A DNA stretch of 64,000 nt, taken from assembly GCF_054482595.1 (NCBI RefSeq), contig NZ_CM137008.1. One strand, given 5' to 3'. The notes beneath the pieces are model-generated. The model was not told where the DNA came from, made no database searches, and worked only from the letters and a program-made list of their open reading frames with translations. This document shows positions 7,580 through 45,964 of this stretch, in pieces. The stretch's first letter is position 1. Every line of letters starts with the position of its first letter. Both the position numbers and the translations under genes were made by a program.

Positions 7580-9130
7580 ATGAAAAGATCGATATCGTTT
7601 CGTCCTACATTGCTCGCGCTCGTCCTTGCCACAACTTTCCCGGTTGCGCACGCCGCCGTACCGAAAGATATGCTGGTGATTGGTAAGGCCGCCGATCCAC
7701 AAACCCTCGACCCGGCGGTAACAATAGATAATAACGACTGGACGGTGACCTACCCGTCTTATCAGCGGCTGGTTCAGTACAAAACGGACGGTGATAAAGG
7801 CTCAACCGACGTTGAAGGCGATCTGGCGAGTGGCTGGAAAGCGTCTGACGATCAAAAAGAGTGGACGTTCACCCTGAAGGACAATGCTAAATTTGCCGAT
7901 GGCACACCCGTCACTGCCGAAGCAGTAAAACTCTCTTTTGAGCGGTTACTAAAAATCGGCCAGGGGCCAGCAGAAGCATTTCCCAAAGATTTAAAGATTG
8001 ATGCTCCCGACGAACATACGGTGAAGTTTACCCTTAGCCAGCCATTTGCACCGTTCCTCTACACGCTGGCGAATGACGGTGCATCCATTATCAATCCGGC
8101 GGTGTTAAAGGAACATGCGGCGGATGATGCCCGCGGCTTCCTCGCGCAAAATACCGCCGGTTCCGGACCATTTATGCTGAAAAGCTGGCAAAAAGGTCAG
8201 CAATTAGTTCTGGTGCCAAATCCGCATTACCCTGGCAATAAACCGAACTTTAAGCGAGTATCGGTAAAAATTATTGGTGAAAGTGCCTCCCGTCGCCTGC
8301 AGCTCTCCCGTGGCGACATTGACATTGCCGATGCGCTGCCGGTGGATCAACTCAACGCCCTGAAGCAGGAAAATAAAGTCAATGTGGCAGAGTATCCGTC
8401 ACTGCGCGTCACCTATCTGTATCTGAATAACAGCAAAGCGCCACTTAATCAGGCGGATCTGCGGCGGGCCATTTCCTGGTCTACCGATTATCAGGGCATG
8501 GTTAACGGCATTCTGAGTGGTAACGGAAAACAGATGCGCGGCCCGATTCCGGAAGGCATGTGGGGCTACGATGCGACGGCAATGCAATACAACCATGACG
8601 AAACGAAAGCCAAAGCTGAATGGGATAAAGTGACGAACAAACCCACCAGCCTGACGTTTCTCTATTCTGATAATGATCCGAACTGGGAGCCTATTGCTCT
8701 GGCGACACAATCCAGTCTCAACAAGCTGGGCATCAATGTGAAGCTGGAAAAGCTGGCGAACGCCACCATGCGCGACAGAGTGGGTAAAGGTGATTACGAC
8801 ATTGCGATTGGCAACTGGAGTCCGGATTTTGCCGACCCGTATATGTTTATGAATTACTGGTTTGAGTCAGACAAAAAAGGTCTGCCGGGTAACCGCTCGT
8901 TCTATGAAAACAGTGAGGTCGATAAGTTACTGCGCAATGCGCTCGCGACCACCGACCAGACGCAGCGTACCCGGAACTACCAGCAGGCACAGAAAATCGT
9001 CATTGATGACGCTGCTTATGTGTACCTGTTCCAGAAAAACTACCAACTGGCGATGAACAAAGAGGTGAAAGGCTTTGTGTTCAATCCCATGCTGGAACAG
9101 GTCTTCAATATCAATACCATGAGTAAATAA
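7580..9130 (+). CDS. ddpA: Periplasmic dipeptide-binding protein DdpA (ABC transporter)
   Basis: ORF 7442-9130; start placed at MKRSISF, which is followed by a signal peptide (…PVAHA); family 5 substrate-binding protein features. Confidence 0.85.
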   Translation: MKRSISFRPTLLALVLATTFPVAHAAVPKDMLVIGKAADPQTLDPAVTIDNNDWTVTYPSYQRLVQYKTDGDKGSTDVEGDLASGWKASDDQKEWTFTLKDNAKFADGTPVTAEAVKLSFERLLKIGQGPAEAFPKDLKIDAPDEHTVKFTLSQPFAPFLYTLANDGASIINPAVLKEHAADDARGFLAQNTAGSGPFMLKSWQKGQQLVLVPNPHYPGNKPNFKRVSVKIIGESASRRLQLSRGDIDIADALPVDQLNALKQENKVNVAEYPSLRVTYLYLNNSKAPLNQADLRRAISWSTDYQGMVNGILSGNGKQMRGPIPEGMWGYDATAMQYNHDETKAKAEWDKVTNKPTSLTFLYSDNDPNWEPIALATQSSLNKLGINVKLEKLANATMRDRVGKGDYDIAIGNWSPDFADPYMFMNYWFESDKKGLPGNRSFYENSEVDKLLRNALATTDQTQRTRNYQQAQKIVIDDAAYVYLFQKNYQLAMNKEVKGFVFNPMLEQVFNINTMSK

Positions 9131-36620: not shown

Positions 36621-36848
36621 TTACATGCTGTAACCGGGTTTCTTTATCAAAGCCTCCATTTGGGGCGCGATTTCGGCATCCCAGATAGCTTGCCATGATT
36701 CTGGTTGAATCTGCTGTAGAGAAATGCTTATCGAGCTATCTTTACTGTTCAGATGGCGAATAATAACGTCGGTAATATCTGCAGCAAGTGCTGCTTTTTG
36801 TTGTTCGTCCAGTTCACGCGGAAAACATTTAATGTCGATGTGCGGCAT
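36621..36848 (-). CDS. pptA: Tautomerase PptA (4-oxalocrotonate tautomerase family)
   Basis: 75-aa product [12 protein letters not shown]… with the N-terminal Pro characteristic of tautomerases; within ORF 36621-36962. Confidence 0.85.
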
Positions 36849-37289
36849 GATTACGCTCCTTTTGAAAGATGTCAGTAAAATTAACACACATTGTGAATGT
36901 CGTATGTCCGGTGATGCGTTTTTACGACAATAATGCCTGCTTGAAATTGTAGATATTTGCACTACACCCTTTTAAATAAAGCACCAACAAATCGTCAACT
37001 TGCAGAACATATTCTTCTGCCTACATACCATTAAGAAAACATCAAGTTCCCGACTTGCCAATTTATTAACGCCCATTATAGACGCTGAAACAAGCTACGG
37101 ACAAAGGAGATGCCAAAATTACCGGCAATGCAGAAAAACTCAACGAACCATGGCTCTTTACCACAGCAGCCGGGGTTGTTTGGGACCGACTTCCGACAGC
37201 AGATCCCGGTGGGCCTGCCACCATCTCTTCACAAGTTTATGCTTATTACATGCAAAACGTCCCGTTTTGCATCTTTGTGCCTACGGCAC

Positions 37290-37442: not shown

Positions 37443-37856
37443 TCAATATCCTAACGCTGGTCTTTTGCCTGTATTAACTGATTTAGCTGGTTTGCTACAT
37501 ATTAATGCCTTCAGATTTTCCCTTTCCTTGTCTGTGATACTGTCACAAACCCTACTAGCCCATTCTACTTCACTCTTCTCCAGGCATTCTATTTTCTTAT
37601 TGCTCATTGTTCTAATGTTTGGTGTTGCATCTCCATTTAATAACATCCATGTTTCATTTTTCTTCATAAAACATCTTCCATTATGTTCAAAGATATTAGG
37701 TGTGAATATATTATCAGAATCCCATGTTACGACTTGCTCGAGGGCTATATTATCTTGATAGTCCATGCCAGCATTATAATAATCACAAGATATAATTATC
37801 ATGGAAATAATTATCATGGAAATAATTATCACTAATATCTTCCCAAGCATTTCCAT
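37443..37856 (-). CDS. Putative Rhs immunity protein; predicted inner-membrane lipoprotein (137 aa)
   Basis: Start ATG directly abuts the rhs stop (…GTAAAGTAAATGGAAATG); signal peptide with lipobox IISC and Asp at +2; AT-rich like the Rhs C-terminal domain. Confidence 0.7.
   Translation of the reverse strand: MEMLGKILVIIISMIIISMIIISCDYYNAGMDYQDNIALEQVVTWDSDNIFTPNIFEHNGRCFMKKNETWMLLNGDATPNIRTMSNKKIECLEKSEVEWASRVCDSITDKERENLKALICSKPAKSVNTGKRPALGY
37792..37832. repeat. 15-bp tandem repeat (2.7 copies of ataattatcatggaa) inside the putative immunity gene signal peptide
   Basis: Seen directly; encodes the repeated SMIII segment of the hydrophobic core. Confidence 0.9.
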
Positions 37857-40800
37857 TTACTTTACCTCTTGAAATTCAAATGGGAATCCAGTGAAAGGAC
37901 CTTTAGGCATAATATATCTTTGATATCCATAAAGCTCACCGAGCACTTGTAGGCTTATAGGCGCATTTGTATTCATAGAGGGGTTGTTAAACCCGCACGC
38001 CTCAAAAATCATGTTCGTTCGGCTAAAACAATTATTTAAAACAGGAAGAGGCCCGAGGTTAATAGTTTTTAGTTTTTTATTAAGGTCTATTGCCTTATTC
38101 ATCATACATTGTTCTTCTTCATCTGTTGTATCTATTATCCAAATCCAGGTATCTCTGCGGGATTGTATCTTTTTAAAATAATCAGAGACAGAGGCTCCCA
38201 TCTCATCCCCAGTTCCCGAACTCATTAATCCATATCGATTTGCCGCCGCAGCATGCCCAAAAGGATTATCAGGAACGGGGCCGTTACCTATTATCATAGT
38301 ACTAAGCCCTAATGGATCAACGTGTTGCACTGGATTCAGCGGATATTGGTACAGATTCCATCCCCCCTTCAGCCCTATCGGGTCCTGAGTGATATACCGC
38401 CCCTGCAACGGATCGTAGTACCGGTTCCGGTTGTAGTACAGCCCCGACTCCTTATCATACTGCTGCCCCGGCAGCCGGTACGGCTGGTGCAGGTGATGCG
38501 GGTTCTCCTCATTAAGCTGGTTGCCCCATTCATCATACTCCGCGCTCCACGCCGTATTGCCGTCTTCACTGATAAGCGCCAGCGGCAGGCCCCGGTGGTC
38601 GCAGTGGTAAAGATGAACTTTTCTCGCCGGTGTGTATTCCGGCTCCATCTGTCTGGCCAGTTGCTCCACCGTCAGCCCGCACTGCGCAAGCCACGCCCGG
38701 CTTTCACTGCTCACGCGGTCTGCCCGGATTTCTTCCTCCAGTCTGTCCAGCAGCCGCACCAGTTCAGCCGGAAATACCACGCCGTGCCCGTCCTCGCTCC
38801 CTTCCTGCTGCATCTTCTCCGCCAGGCTGCGGCGCTGCGCTTTCTCCCGCTCGCCGTTCTCTGTCTCGCCCCGGATGAGCGGCGTGAAGCTTCCCGGCTC
38901 GTATACCGTCTGGATACGTGTGGTGTCAGTCTGCACCGTCGTCAGCCTGTCGCCGTCCCACCCGTACCATGTCTCCTCCGGTTTACGCGACAGCGACATC
39001 CATCCCGTCAGGTCACGCCCGCGACGCCACACCCGTTTCGCCATTCGCCGTCCCAGCGGGTCGTAGAGGTAGCAGCTCTCGACCAGTGGCTCGCCATGCT
39101 GTATCCGCGTGTAGAACACCAGGCGGTGCTGGCTGTCGTAGTGATAGTGGTGGGTGCGCTCGTCGTGCATCCGGATAACCCCTTCCGGGATACGGTCCGT
39201 CTTCTCCGCCAGCCTGCCGTATTCATCGTAGCGGTAGACATAGTGCGCATCTTCCGCGATGCGGTTATCCGGCCACGCCGTGAAGGTGCTGTCCGGGTGC
39301 AGTTCCGGGTCCGGCAGCCGGTTTCCTGCCGGGTCCGTCGCATACGGGATATCGATATCCAGGTTCGCTGCCGTGGTGTGGACGCCCGTCAGCCTTCCCG
39401 TGCCGCTGTAACGGTACTCCCGGCTCTCCTGCGGGCCGCTGATGCGGATTAGCTGTCCGTTGTCGTTCCAGTCGTAGTCATGGTCAAGCTGCGGAAGGTT
39501 CAGGTGCCTGCTCCGGAGCTGGCCGCTGGTATTCCAGGCGGTGGCAAGTTCATATGCCTCCCCGCCGAAGCTGCGGGCCGTCTCACGGTGCAGCCGGTCC
39601 CGCGTGTACTCGACCAGCGGCGTTCCGCCCAGCTTCATCCCCGCAAGATAACCGCTGCCATACGTCAGCCACTCCACCCGCGGCAGGCTGTCCGGCGTGA
39701 CGCGGTTTGCCAGACCCTGTTCGTTGTATGCGTGCTCTGTCTCATGCTGCCACAGCAGTTCCCCCGTCTCCGGGTTATGCACCGTCTGGCGTTCGCCGGC
39801 CAGGCGACCCTTATCATCATAACCGTAATGCACCGCCACCTGATGGCCTTCGCTCAGGTGGCTGATGTCTGTCAGCCAGCCGTGGCCGTCATACTGCCAC
39901 TGCTCTGCCGGTTCACCGTTCACCGTGCGGTGAGTGATACGGTCCGATTCGTCGTAGTGCCAGAGGGTGACAAGTCCCTCATCCTCACTCTGTGTGAGTT
40001 TTCCGGTCAGGTCATAATGATAACGCTGCGTCCGCCCGTCAAAGCCGCCCTGCTGTACCAGGCGGTCCAGCGCATCGTAGCTGAAGTCGCTGTGACTGCC
40101 GTTCTCGTTGGTCAGGCTGATGACACGTCCGGCAGCATCGTACTCCATACTGCGCGTCAGCCCGCCCTGCGTGGTGCTGACCGCCTTTCCCCACGCATCG
40201 TACTGTGTCTCGCTCCGGTTGCCGTCCGGGGTGATAACGGCAGTCAGGTCGCCTGCGGCGTTGTATTCATACCGCGTTTCACGGCCCTGTGCGTCTTTCA
40301 CCGAGGTTAACCGGCCACGGTTGTCATAGCGGCGGTAAAGGCTGATGCCTTCCTCGCGGTGGACCGCCGTCATCTGGCCGAAGCGGTCGTATTCATAGCG
40401 GGTCTGGTAGCCCGAGCAGTCGGTGAACGCCAGCAACTGACCGTAGCGGCTCCACGTCATCTGCCGGGTGCTGCCCGTCGCATCTGTTGTCGTGGCCGGT
40501 AATTCACTGTGCGCATCATCATAGCGGTAGCGTACTGTCTCCCCGCTGCGCGATGTCTCCGTTACCAGCCTGTCCAGTTCATCATATGCCCGGCGGCTCT
40601 CCAGCCCGTCCGGGGACACCACCGCCGTCAGCTGGTTCCCGTCGTTATAGTAAAATTTCGTCTCCCGCCCGTCCGGTGTGGTGATGTCCGTGATATCGCC
40701 GGACACCACATTCAGACCGTACTCTGTCCGCCGTCCCGCCGCGTCCGTCTGCGCCGTGAGCCTTCCTGCCGCGTCATACCCGCTGTGCGTGACGCTGCCA

Positions 40801-42062
40801 TCCGCCAGTTCTTTTTTCACCACCCGTTTCAGCCCGCCTTCACCTTCTGTATGCAGCACCTCACGCCGGTTCAGGCTGTCGGTGACGGTGATGCGGTCCT
40901 GCTCATACTGGTAGCGGTAACTCAGGCCTGCCGGGTTAAGCTGCTCCACCACCCGCCCGGTATCGTCGTAGCGGTAGCGCATCTCCGGCCTTCCCGCATA
41001 ACGGTGCCCCACCATCCGGCCCGGGTGCTGCGCGTCATACGTGAAAGCGCGCACCTGTGTCCCGCTGCGGTCATATACCGCCAGCAGTTCACCGGCTTCC
41101 GTATACGTGTACCGCGCCAGTGGCGCTCCGGGCAGGCTCTCCGGGTATGCCGGGTCGTGCATCAGCCACACCGCCAAAAGGCGGATACCCCTGTCGGGGC
41201 CGTATTCGGTACCGGGCAGTGTGTCGGGGAACGCTGAGGCTGAGAGAGGGCGGGAACGGTCAGAAGAAGATAGCGAAGAGGTGCGGGCCTCTTCCGCACG
41301 CTGCGCCTGCGTGGTCAGCACCAGACGGAACTCCCGCCCGGCACCGTCCGTCACGCCGGTGATTTCCCCGGCCAGGTCACCGGCGGCCTCACGCCGGTAC
41401 GTCAGCGTCCGCCCGAAGCGGTCCGCCATCCCGGTAAGCACCCGGTACGGCGGCAGCGGCGCTGGCAGTACGTCCTCAGCACCCGGCACCCGCTCAGACC
41501 ACCCCAGTATCCACCACGGCCCCTGTGCGCTGTTGGTCGCCAGGTAAAGATGCGGGCTTAACCGGATATCCGGCGGCAGCGACGCCCACAGCCGTGCCAG
41601 CGTATGGCCGTCCGGCTGCGTTGCCTTACCGCCACGCACCAGCCACAGGGACTCGCTGCGGCTGTACACCGCCTCACCCGGCAGCAGCGGCTCAAAGTGA
41701 ATGCTCCGTCCGCCGTTGTCGTTGAGTACCAGTGCATCATCGCGTAGCTGTAAGCGGATATCAGAAGGCGCTTTCCAGCCGGGGCCAAAAATCCCCACCG
41801 GTGCAGGCGTCTTCGTCCGGTAGCTGCTGTAGGTGCGGGAGAGAATGAACGGCAGCGGGCCGGGCAGCGCAAGGTCCGTCTCGCCGGGCAGCACCTTCGC
41901 CCCCAGTAGCGGGTTTACCGGGTTAGAATAGGTGATACCGCCCGGACACACCGAGCACGCCACACCGGTCGGCGCGCCTATCAGTACCCCCGCTGACCCC
42001 TGGACTATCGGACCGCCGTACTGGGTCATATCTCCCTGGCGTGCCGCTGGTTTTCCGCTCAT
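37857..42062 (-). CDS. rhs: PAAR-domain Rhs protein (1401 aa): N-terminal PAAR-like region, YD/RHS repeat core, DPLGL boundary, 148-aa C-terminal domain of unknown function (putative toxin)
   Basis: N-terminus [11 protein letters not shown]…; numerous YD repeats; core ends …[32 protein letters not shown] at 38304-38318; downstream CT (37860-38303) is AT-rich. Confidence 0.9.
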
Positions 42063-42129: not shown

Positions 42130-44238
42130 TCAGTACTCTCTCATATCCGGCGTATCCTGCTTTTCATCAGGTGTCTTCGGTGGGGATTTCGAGGCTGCAC
42201 AGTTCAAGTTAATCAACAGTGAGTCACCATTAACCTGCTCCTTACCCTGCAAATGAATTTTTGTGCCGTTGAGAAAAATTTGTCCGTCCTTCGTCAGCAC
42301 CAGCCTTGCCTTACCACAGCAGAGCTCCAGATGCTCCCCGGCAGAGTAAATCGCTGTCTGTCCGGTATCATCCTTCTTCGTTTTACCCACGGTGAAGGTG
42401 ACGTTATTTCCGACTTTAACGTCATATCCTTTCCCCACAAGCAGCGATTTATTTACCCCCACCTGCGAGGACTGCATCAGCGCCACCGAGGTGTTCATAA
42501 TGCCACCTACCGTCGTCTGATACGCCACGCCCACGGTCAGCGCACGAACAAGTCCAATCGTTTCCACCTGAACAGAACCCACTTTAATTATCTGGTTACT
42601 GCCCACCGTCTCTATCTGGTTAACACCCACCGTCTGTATCTGATTGTTGGTAACCGCAATCATCTGATTGTTGCCAATGGTTTCAGCATGGTTGTTTATC
42701 ACATCCGTGGTGCGGTTATTCAGCACCTCGGTGTTCATGTTCTTCTGCGCGTGGATGTAGACCTGTTCTTTCCCTGTCGCATCGTCAAACTTCAGTTCAT
42801 TAAACCCGCTGCCCTTATAGGTTTTCGAACGAATGGTCATCTGCGTCTTCGTCCCCGGCAGGCTGCCGGGGGTGCGGTTTTCCTGGTGGTAGGTACGCCC
42901 CATAATAATCGGCTGGTCCGGATCGCCGTTGAGGAAGTCCACAATCACCTCCTGACCCACACGCGGTATCGCCAGGTTGCCAAAGCCGGTGCCTGCCCAC
43001 GCCTGTGCCACACGGATCCAGCATGAACTGTCCTGGTTTGACGGGTTATAGCGGTCCCAGTTAAATTTCACCCGCACGCGGCCATGTTCATCACAGAAGA
43101 TTTCCTCGCCTGCCGGTCCCGTCACGACGGCGCTCTGCGGGCCGTCCACCATCGGTTTCAGCAACGGCTGTGGCCGCCATGTCCGGTCTGCCGGGATTAC
43201 CGCAAAGTGGTTATTCAGCGTGGTACCTGAACCACTGCGTCCCGGCACCGCCTGCGGCTGCTCGCCGTGCAGTTCACTTGCCACCACCTGCCATTCCCGG
43301 TTCAGGTTCGCCTGCGGATGCCCCGTCAGCGCAATTCGCCGTCCCGGCCATATCTCCGGAGAACGGCTTGTTCCGCGCGCCACTTCTGCGTTGTTTCGCC
43401 AGCCATCCATCTGCCAGCGGGCAAAGTTCTGCCCGTGGGCACCCTTGAAACGTCCGGGGTAGTCATACACTTCATACTGTGTGCGCTGGTAATCCTGGTA
43501 CTGGCCTTCCTGATCAAAACGCCCTGCCCAGCCGGGTCGTTTAAAGGTGTAGTCTTTGGTCACCACGGAAGAAGGGCGGATTTGTGCGCTGTAGCGAAAC
43601 TGGCTGATGCATAGGGTGCTCACCTCGGTACGGGTGTTCGGGTTCCAGGGGATCTCAAAGGACTCCGGCAGATAACGCACGGTGTCGCACAGGACCAGGC
43701 TCTGGTCGATACTTTTTTGCGCGTGCTCCTCATAAAAGAAGATGCCTTCCTCCGCCGCCATCCGGCACAGGAAATCGTAATCGGTTTCGCCGTACTGGAC
43801 ACAAAACTCACGGGAAGGATGTGGCTCGCTGAACAGCGGGCTCCACTCGGTAACCCCGTTTTCCTGCAATATCGTGCCGAGGATGCTTTCGATGTCCTCA
43901 TTCTGGAAGATACGGAAGTTCTGGCGCAGCCCTGTGCGCCACAGCGGTGGGCACACCTTCATGCTGTACAGCATCTGGTTTTTGTCGTTCTCCCCCAGTT
44001 CAAACCAGGTCACCATACCTTTCACCCGGCGCTGTACGTCATCGCCCTGCCATACCGTCAGGTAGGCCATTTTGTCCAGCACCTGCGCAAATTCAAGGGA
44101 AAGAAACTGCTGACTGACCAGAGAAAGGTCGAGGGAAAAAAGTGAAGAGAGTGACTGGGAGAGGTGAAAGGAAACCACCGCAAAAGCATCCGGTGGCAGG
44201 CCGTCCACTTCAAGTGTGAAACGTAATCCGGTTGACAT
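42130..44238 (-). CDS. vgrG: Type VI secretion spike protein VgrG
   Basis: Start placed at MSTGLRFTLEVDGLP within ORF 42130-44274; VgrG gp27/gp5-like sequence; 67 bp upstream of rhs. Confidence 0.85.
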   Translation of the reverse strand: MSTGLRFTLEVDGLPPDAFAVVSFHLSQSLSSLFSLDLSLVSQQFLSLEFAQVLDKMAYLTVWQGDDVQRRVKGMVTWFELGENDKNQMLYSMKVCPPLWRTGLRQNFRIFQNEDIESILGTILQENGVTEWSPLFSEPHPSREFCVQYGETDYDFLCRMAAEEGIFFYEEHAQKSIDQSLVLCDTVRYLPESFEIPWNPNTRTEVSTLCISQFRYSAQIRPSSVVTKDYTFKRPGWAGRFDQEGQYQDYQRTQYEVYDYPGRFKGAHGQNFARWQMDGWRNNAEVARGTSRSPEIWPGRRIALTGHPQANLNREWQVVASELHGEQPQAVPGRSGSGTTLNNHFAVIPADRTWRPQPLLKPMVDGPQSAVVTGPAGEEIFCDEHGRVRVKFNWDRYNPSNQDSSCWIRVAQAWAGTGFGNLAIPRVGQEVIVDFLNGDPDQPIIMGRTYHQENRTPGSLPGTKTQMTIRSKTYKGSGFNELKFDDATGKEQVYIHAQKNMNTEVLNNRTTDVINNHAETIGNNQMIAVTNNQIQTVGVNQIETVGSNQIIKVGSVQVETIGLVRALTVGVAYQTTVGGIMNTSVALMQSSQVGVNKSLLVGKGYDVKVGNNVTFTVGKTKKDDTGQTAIYSAGEHLELCCGKARLVLTKDGQIFLNGTKIHLQGKEQVNGDSLLINLNCAASKSPPKTPDEKQDTPDMREY

Positions 44239-45346
44239 AGCAACCTCCGTGAAAATGAATAATAATCCGCACATATTGCATGTACAACATGTCGGGCGGA
44301 TGAGATAAGCGAGTCGACATCTGGCGTTACCGGGGAATATCAGAAAAATGTCATGGTTATGTGATGATTTAGTCTGGGATTTTACTTCAGAGAAACGGGT
44401 GTCTGTTTAGTCAACAAAATAATCACAAACGCAACGGATGGGTTCTCGACGTTATTCACGACAGGCTCGTACATTACAGCGAGTAATAAAAAACCCGATA
44501 TGCAAAGTCAAACCAATATTCATAATGTCTTTTTATTCACAACAATAAATAATTTAATAACAATCATTGAAATGAATGATGATTTGTATAAGGAATATAC
44601 GCTACCGCCCCACCCTGATAACATGATCTGCACATTGCCATCTTAACGTCGTTAAACACTGGCTTAATAGTGGATATTTCAAATTAGGAATTTATTAAAT
44701 TCACCTGATGAATATCATAAGCAAATAGCATAGAAAATAATGACAACTCCCCCGAGGGGACCATTTCCAAAGCACTGCACCACCACCTGGTGCCCGGATG
44801 ATCTTGCTTCAGTGGTAAGAGTACCTGATTCATTGTTCCCAAAATGGTGTTTTCCCCTGCCCCTCCAATAATGTGCAGCTCTCACGTGATAATCTATTGA
44901 TTAGGTTATATTAAGAATCAATATTTAAAATACATCCATTTTCTTGAATAAATCAACATGTTTATTAATCAATTGCTGTTTTAGCTCTGACTCATCAAGC
45001 TCTCCATATTTGTCCTACAGATAATTGCGAATAAATACAGAGAACGCCATTTATCCTTTTAGCATACCTGCCGGATATTTTTATTTGTATTAATATTAAT
45101 TGCATCTCCAACTCCGAGCATATCCATCATTAAAAAAATTTTGAGATTATAGAATACCTGTGATAACAAGTGAAACATCTGCACAATGTGAATAGTTAGT
45201 TTCTTTTCAGAGGAAATGAAATAGACACGCTGAATGAAAGGGAGAGTGATATAAATTAAAAAACATAACGTGAATTTAATTAATTACGCCCATCATTGTG
45301 GATAAAGTTACTGAATAATAAATAACATAATCTTCTGGTATCCCAC

Positions 45347-45964
45347 TCAAATAATTTCATTCCTTTTTAGTATTTCTTGTAACGTTGGTAACTGACATAC
45401 AGCATCAGCAATCGCACTGATATTCGTGGCATTATCCTGAAACCATTCATGCCCAGGCCCCCATGTGCGCATAGTGCAAAGATAACAGTCCACCAGCGTT
45501 AGTTGCTCACCAAACGCATAAGGTTCAGCGGTCAATTGTGAATTCAGCCAGATATAAAGCGATTTACGATATTCAATAACATTCTTCTTTAACTGTTCGG
45601 GTGCGTCAGGAGCCCAACGCTCAGGGTAATCGGCGAAAGTGAATGTTGGATAGACATTAGCAACCAGCCAGACCAATAGCCGTTGAAACTGCTGACGTTC
45701 GGCGCGCCCAACCGGTGGCGCAAGGTCCGGGCGACGATCGAGAACCATCAATGCAATCGCCGCTGTCTCCGTCATAATCTCGTCATTTTCCAATGCCAGT
45801 GTCGGAACCTGACACAACGGGTTCAGGGTTTTCAATAACTCGCGTGAAGCTCCCTCGTGGTCAAAACCACTGACATCAACGAACTGATAAGGAATATCAG
45901 CCAGTGTTAGCATCAGCTCACTGATTGTAGAGCCCCATCCGGGTACGCCATACACCTTAATCAT
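45347..45964 (-). CDS. yncG: Glutathione S-transferase homolog YncG
   Basis: 205-aa ORF; GST-like N-terminal region; synteny next to ansP. Confidence 0.8.
   Translation of the reverse strand: MIKVYGVPGWGSTISELMLTLADIPYQFVDVSGFDHEGASRELLKTLNPLCQVPTLALENDEIMTETAAIALMVLDRRPDLAPPVGRAERQQFQRLLVWLVANVYPTFTFADYPERWAPDAPEQLKKNVIEYRKSLYIWLNSQLTAEPYAFGEQLTLVDCYLCTMRTWGPGHEWFQDNATNISAIADAVCQLPTLQEILKRNEII

Follow-up and report, generated by a model that had tools for sequence, protein, structure and literature searches.

Comparative analysis of the interval between yncG and vgrG (positions 44239–45346 of the window, the 64,000-nucleotide stretch of contig NZ_CM137008.1, assembly GCF_054482595.1, that was analysed here) revealed what is quite probably an ordinary, already annotated AT-rich spacer separating yncG from an orphan vgrG–rhs toxin island. 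The locus as such is already known, and a 37-nt core conserved within the vgrG leader is, in our judgement, the sole lead worth following. Little is at stake in this result, which corrects a gene-free reading of the interval: yncH is present with a mutated start codon. As a by-product, the analysis provides a precise boundary (44744) of the duplicated vgrG–rhs unit. We propose that the interval consists of three parts, namely a vgrG–rhs leader (44239–44744), a stretch of locus-specific filler (44745–45058) and yncH (45059–45280), and that it makes up the non-coding right-hand end of a ~8-kb accessory island, extending from ~37.15 to 45.35 kb.

The window originates from an Escherichia coli chromosome, and the interval is 100% identical to the corresponding region of strain XH990 (NZ_CP019359). 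At least 80% of it is present in 3539 of 5426 complete E. coli genomes, almost all at 95–100% identity. The gene order is yncE, ansP, yncG (45347–45964, minus strand, ending at 45347 and thereby bordering the interval), the interval itself, vgrG, the gene for the Rhs core protein (37857–42062) and its presumed immunity gene (37443–37856), with yncG, yncH, vgrG and rhs all lying on the minus strand. vgrG starts at 44238 (minus strand), in agreement with the RefSeq VgrG start in the identical genome; the mechanically called vgrG ORF opens at an upstream ATG (44274), while the annotated start preceded by a Shine–Dalgarno sequence is that at 44238.

The far edge of the island is adjoined by pptA (36621–36848) and marked, next to that gene, by the remnant of a sulfatase-like gene (37082–37147), whose 22 residues are 91% identical to the C-terminal region of the gene neighbouring yncG in Citrobacter and in one divergent genome labelled as E. 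coli (L007). The segment is absent from Citrobacter, Klebsiella, Enterobacter, Leclercia and Pseudocitrobacter as well as from L007, and in these genomes the sulfatase gene or pptA directly follows yncG. Based on the position of the sulfatase remnant next to pptA, we concluded that the segment from 37.15 to 45.35 kb, including yncH and the GC-richer patch described below, is accessory relative to the other genera. In E. coli, the proposed island lies between pptA, beside the sulfatase-gene remnant, and yncG; it comprises rhs with its immunity gene, vgrG and the leader, as well as the patch and yncH.

Several side observations concern the locus and its surroundings. Insertions of IS3-family and IS1 elements were found in the spacer of three of about ten strains inspected, at positions equivalent to 44853, 44936 and ~45080 (in L024, L004 and L021); the spacer appears to tolerate or attract IS insertion. 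In strain SW4848 (L019), the annotation gives yncG, yncH and vgrG alike as frameshifted or split, and several small indels occur in the spacer; these disruptions probably stem from faulty assembly and not from biology. Another strongly AT-rich stretch of the window (~23500–25100, 33% GC) corresponds in the identical genome to a yddL porin pseudogene and a gene for a leucine-rich-repeat protein.

Examination of the base composition bore out the strong AT-richness that an earlier, sequence-only reading of this DNA had claimed, the GC content of 44239–45346 being 35.5% compared with 50.7% for the window, which places the interval in the lowest 3% among windows of 1108 bp. The longest ORF running from ATG, GTG or TTG to a stop codon comprises 56 aa. 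As 48% of composition-matched shuffles were likewise devoid of an ORF of at least 60 aa, the lack of such a frame is unremarkable. The accompanying description of the region as free of ORFs therefore stands only for frames of at least 60 aa with one of these three start codons; it does not extend to yncH, which is annotated at 45059–45280 in the identical genome. The gene escaped both the ORF lister and the sequence-only reading because the ATG used in K-12 is replaced by ACG here, whereas the statement in that same reading that K-12 has a small gene, yncH, between yncG and rhsE proved correct, the gene being present according to both RefSeq and Pfam.

The yncH gene (YncH/DUF5445; 45059–45280, minus strand) immediately follows yncG, with which it shares the strand, and is annotated in the identical genome as CDS WP_032154043.1, with a 73-aa product read from an ATT start within a 74-codon open frame. 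YncH matches Pfam family PF17520 with an E-value of 5.1e-40 and 135.6 bits, against a gathering cut-off of 25. Strain comparison located the start ATG at 45271–45269 in K-12 and in the six other strains examined, while the window carries ACG at these positions (45269–45271, minus strand). The intact 70-aa yncH ORF of K-12, which opens with a standard ATG, is not preserved in the window, where the first available ATG, GTG or TTG yields a product of 41 aa. Only 14 of 3590 genomes contain the exact 50-mer bearing the ACG, which thus represents a rare allele. The N-terminal part of the gene is also unstable elsewhere, with a 1-bp deletion in two strains, and in SW4848, an assembly with many indels, yncH is a frameshifted pseudogene. 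No Shine–Dalgarno sequence was found upstream of the K-12 start.

Searches among 5.8 billion proteins returned 157 matches to the YncH family, and every one of those listed shares at least 83% identity and bears the name Escherichia or Enterobacteriaceae; judged by this distribution, yncH is an Escherichia-restricted orphan ORF. A 74-codon open frame is what the base composition of the interval yields by chance. Estimates of pN/pS, which rest on very few sites, amounted to 0.25–1 for yncH versus ~0.1 for yncG, and the 28 C-terminal residues of YncH are invariant among the six alleles compared. In view of this invariant C-terminus and the pN/pS values, yncH may still be a real small gene. In the literature, mentions of yncH are confined to lists from screens, covering over-expression and TraDIS, and transposon insertions in yncH were sparse in the TraDIS study (PMC5821084). 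This sparsity would, in our own interpretation rather than that of the cited paper, fit AT-rich DNA coated with protein. Overall, the coding status of yncH is doubtful, and in the strain of the window the gene is at best poorly initiated.

The part of the interval closest to vgrG (44239–44744, minus strand) constitutes the 5′ non-coding leader of the vgrG–rhs unit, consisting of the promoter region and the vgrG 5′ UTR, as it is contiguous with the vgrG start and homologous to the region upstream of a paralogous vgrG adjacent to cusS. In every leader compared, this homology breaks off at an identical TCATTA (minus strand), located at 44744 in the window, which identifies 44744 as the 5′ end of the duplicated vgrG–rhs unit. 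Reading of the sequence revealed a Shine–Dalgarno motif GGAGG (44244–44248, minus strand) ahead of the ATG at 44238, and a sigma-70 promoter-like arrangement TTGACT-17-TATTAC, unique in the window and directed at vgrG/rhsE, is predicted at 44483–44511 (minus strand). For the spacer between yncH and rhsE in K-12, a site bound in vitro by RpoD holoenzyme in genomic SELEX, an H-NS flag and a predicted promoter TTGACT-17-TATTAC toward rhsE have been reported (PMC3946193, with the H-NS flag given in Table 3 therein). This RpoD site and its predicted rhsE-directed promoter map to 44511–44483 (minus strand), in line with the sequence-only presumption that the region contains the vgrG–rhs promoter. 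In addition, a pho-box-like site (TATCAGAAAAATGTCATG; 44338–44355, plus strand) exactly matches the motif of a weak PhoB ChIP-seq peak in K-12 (NC_000913.3:1527862, motif TATCAGAAAAATGTCATG, ChIP score 1), which carries an H-NS-bound flag (PMC10294691, Table 1).

The proposal that the region resembles the leader of an island bound by xenogeneic silencers agrees with these data, as the DNA is AT-rich island-leader DNA and the 98%-identical K-12 spacer is flagged for H-NS in two studies (PMC3946193, PMC10294691). High AT content within accessory DNA, the composition of H-NS-bound xenogeneic DNA, was likewise found. The search for RNA elements in the leader yielded neither a conserved structure (alifold SCI 0.42, z +0.74) nor an Rfam match, and the supplementary tables of Cappable-seq and SMRT-Cappable-seq contained no transcription starts for the interval. 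Two further literature peaks were considered and discarded: the RpoN SELEX peak assigned to "yncH > ydcD" at 1527534 (PMC8743547) is given in U00096.2 coordinates and lies inside rhsE, outside the spacer, while an RpoS peak at 1528272 falls in ydcD, again outside the spacer. Extrapolating from the K-12 data, we expect the leader to be AT-rich, H-NS-coated and silent under laboratory conditions, and to carry the vgrG ribosome-binding site, at least one promoter of the sigma-70 type, a weak PhoB site and the 37-nt core. By the same analogy, silencing and promoter use in the strain of the window would follow the K-12 pattern.

The best-conserved part of the leader is a distal block (44590–44714), which includes the 37-nt core (44597–44633, minus strand; sense sequence TGCAGATCATGTTATCAGGGTGGGGCGGTAGCGTAT) kept between E. 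coli and a set of Citrobacter-like contigs. Read in the sense direction, the core TGCAGATCATGTTATCAGGGnnGnGCGGTAGCGTAT includes a GATC and a −35-like TTATCA and displays a promoter-like layout, in which TTATCA is followed by a GC-rich spacer of 16 nt and a −10-like hexamer beginning with TAT. Consensus matching accordingly predicts a promoter-like TTATCA-16-TATATT at 44621–44594 (minus strand), the last T of the −10-like hexamer not being kept outside E. coli. The core is the sole stretch retained both in E. coli strains without yncG and yncH and in the Citrobacter-like contigs. In the latter, the core lies ~204 nt after yncG, flanks and cargo are unrelated to the E. coli leader context, and the cargo following the core comprises PAAR, Rhs, an ISAs1-like gene and small ORFs. 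Genes downstream of the core are always co-oriented with it, and in one contig the first ORF begins 63 nt downstream. Besides the window, the core was encountered in L016 (6805–6841), L005 (3001–3054), L120, L146, L057 and L079. The distal block also contains a 13-nt palindrome without strand assignment, TTAACG-T-CGTTAA (44643–44655), which was read from the sequence and is nearly conserved in the leader at the cusS locus.

The core most likely acts as a promoter or an operator of the island, a role as promoter being our best guess. A more far-reaching proposal is that the core represents a dedicated promoter or operator, shared across genera of the Enterobacteriaceae, that switches on orphan T6SS effector islands with vgrG, PAAR and Rhs cargo; we regard this as possible and put it forward tentatively. 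If true, it would give access to the control of orphan vgrG islands in E. coli, whose regulation a 2026 study described as unknown (PMC13141884).

Immediately outside the boundary of the vgrG–rhs element begins the GC-richer patch (44740–44871, plus strand), which the sequence-only reading had pointed out and which is real: its GC content is 51.5%, compared with 24–30% in the flanks, and the maximum GC fraction over 132 nt (0.53, versus 0.444 ± 0.021 in shuffles) was reached by 0.15% of shuffles (p ~0.0015). The patch is single-copy and occurs in 3571 of 5426 E. coli genomes at 95–100% identity; in this analysis it was encountered in no other species, and none of the 30 records listed carries an annotation for it. 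Among eight strains, one of which (SW4848) may contribute assembly errors, 15 of 132 sites vary in the patch versus 26 of 409 and 10 of 187 in the flanks, which corresponds to about twice the flank density.

The 43-aa ORF noted in the patch is present exactly as it had been quoted, but it is not a gene. Its frame is broken across strains, a 1-bp deletion at 44793 shortening it to 25 aa in K-12 and A65EC, and this truncating allele is carried by roughly 40–50% of the patch-containing genomes, an estimate taken from evenly spaced rows of two population searches. All substitutions checked at the protein level change the amino acid, and no Shine–Dalgarno sequence precedes the ATG. The ATG itself (44740–44742) is borrowed from the terminal TAATGA of the vgrG–rhs element, so that the ORF straddles a junction of unrelated DNAs. 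We thus consider the 43-aa ORF an apparent accident of this junction, and the patch most probably a degraded fragment of older DNA evolving neutrally as part of the filler, that is, relic DNA under no detectable constraint. Its neutrality would be consistent with the variability described above. Counting against this explanation, the composition of the patch is a real anomaly, reached by so few shuffles. In practical terms, the patch and its ORF need no annotation.

Whether the patch could instead encode a functional E. coli-specific small RNA or a 43-aa micro-protein rich in Cys, Pro and Trp was weighed against the same data. The compositional island is genuine, 3571 genomes have kept the patch, four of eight sampled strains possess an intact ORF, and in two others, S51 and BP0078, a substitution at 44747 defeats the start-motif search. 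For a small RNA, by contrast, a curated family and a stable structure are both missing: Rfam searches of both strands at permissive thresholds (E up to 10) gave no match for the patch or the interval, a tRNA/tmRNA scan with ARAGORN returned nothing, and folding of the patch was no better than that of shuffles on either strand (z −0.44 and −0.32). The patch is, moreover, no more conserved than its flanks, and the earlier suggestion of an sRNA is therefore not upheld. The micro-protein is opposed by the frameshift, the non-synonymous changes and the borrowed ATG, and no similar predicted protein exists apart from ORFs called on copies of the same locus, which renders this explanation very improbable as a whole. 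Quite unlikely, too, is the possibility that the patch is the recognisable remnant of a specific known gene, whether the gene that ancestrally adjoined yncG or the 5′ portion of a vgrG. Its coding-like GC content and its position at an island edge speak for such an origin, and a scrap of the ancestral sulfatase gene does survive elsewhere (37082–37147). Yet no frame of the patch matches a protein: its joined open frames found nothing in a word-index search of 5.8 billion proteins, and an exhaustive phmmer search of 1.84 billion representatives yielded, besides one low-complexity match and one chimera, nothing but ORFs called on this very locus. Neither the genes neighbouring yncG in Citrobacter or the divergent E. 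coli-labelled genome nor vgrG, plasmids and phages provided a match, the blastn searches of plasmid and phage collections giving either mis-filed E. coli chromosome or nothing. With no similar protein or gene outside the ORFs called on this locus, derivation from the ancestral yncG neighbour was rejected, the true sulfatase remnant being that at 37082–37147. A relic of the inverted vgrG 5′ end, an idea prompted by the chimera (P0127) and a 14-nt inverted repeat, was also rejected, as the local DNA alignment was no better than 36% of shuffles and blastp gave no alignment of the 43-aa ORF to the VgrG N-terminus. A tblastx match of the patch to window positions 8482–8577 aligned stop codons with one another and was dismissed as noise.

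Two further proposals assign the patch a role toward vgrG. As a transcriptional insulator, it would stop read-through from yncG and yncH into the co-oriented vgrG leader by means of a GC hairpin followed by a T-rich tail (44760–44748), a weak candidate terminator identified by consensus match between yncH and the leader (44748–44760, minus strand). The shared minus-strand orientation of yncG, yncH, vgrG and rhs, the location of the terminator-like site exactly at the junction of patch and element, and a 13-nt stem-loop that is invariant in eight strains would suit such a function. The number of terminator-like sites (one found versus 1.2 expected from shuffles), however, is that of random sequence, the hairpin comprises 5 bp at −7.2 kcal/mol (z 0.03), the tail GUUGUCAUUAUUUU is a poor U-tract, and 13 invariant bases carry no weight among sequences that are 97–99% identical; we therefore consider the insulator unlikely. 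The other proposal regards the patch as one arm of an invertible switch, in which an inverted repeat (44180–44193 and 44794–44807) flips the vgrG leader together with the start codon. The 14-nt repeat is complementary at 12 of 14 positions, and in two metagenome contigs vgrG runs up to codon 17 and then passes, at CCGGATG, into the right half of the patch. Against this, the inverted junction occurs in none of the 5426 complete genomes; at their left end the contigs retain the junction of the reference, which indicates a fold-back and not a reciprocal inversion; no invertase or recombinase gene was seen beside the interval; and the patch resembles the vgrG 5′ end no more than expected by chance. 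An invertible switch is thus hardly credible. A decayed scrap of older DNA is the explanation of the patch that we prefer.

The two metagenome contigs merit a brief description of their own. They are independent (L025 and L026, positions 1–720 each) and fuse vgrG codons 1–17 to the right half of the patch, being composed of window positions 44180–44808 in inverted orientation, joined to 44794 onward. The fold-back junction coincides with a 7-nt microhomology, CCGGATG, that forms part of the 14-nt inverted repeat. As the fold-back was found in none of the 5426 complete E. coli genomes, it was treated as an artefact or a rare rearrangement.

Comparison with known systems places the interval within a familiar setting. 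Alignment to the K-12 yncH region, which recovered yncH, revealed the same locus and the same order of yncE, ansP, yncG and yncH as in the yncG–yncH–rhsE region of K-12 (b1454–b1456, RhsE element), with intergenic DNA that is 98.4% identical over window positions 44306–45346. K-12 differs in that vgrG and the 5′ part of rhsE are deleted, with the junction at window position 44306 and rhsE left as a pseudogene, in the ATG start of yncH (ACG in the window), and in the 1-bp deletion within the patch. Comparison of YncH with DUF5445 (PF17520) showed that residues 22–73 match the profile over its full length (positions 1–52 of 52), whereas the canonical start codon is lost here and other strains show variation or frameshifts in the N-terminal region.

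The paralogous vgrG leader adjacent to cusS is ~80% identical over ~500 bp, and 89–93% identical in a second allele class, and shares the Shine–Dalgarno sequence, the conserved core and the distal block up to the common TCATTA. In contrast to the leader of the window, it is without the TTGACT-17-TATTAC promoter spacing, owing to an 8-nt deletion in the spacer, and without the pho-box, and past the boundary its neighbour is cusS, where the window has the patch and yncH. With respect to xenogeneic silencing, the interval resembles known targets in its GC content of 35.5% against a background of 50.7%, in its position at the edge of an accessory island and in the reported H-NS binding of the K-12 ortholog, and it differs from them in that H-NS occupancy is known from the literature on this K-12 ortholog rather than from the strain of the window or from an intact island.
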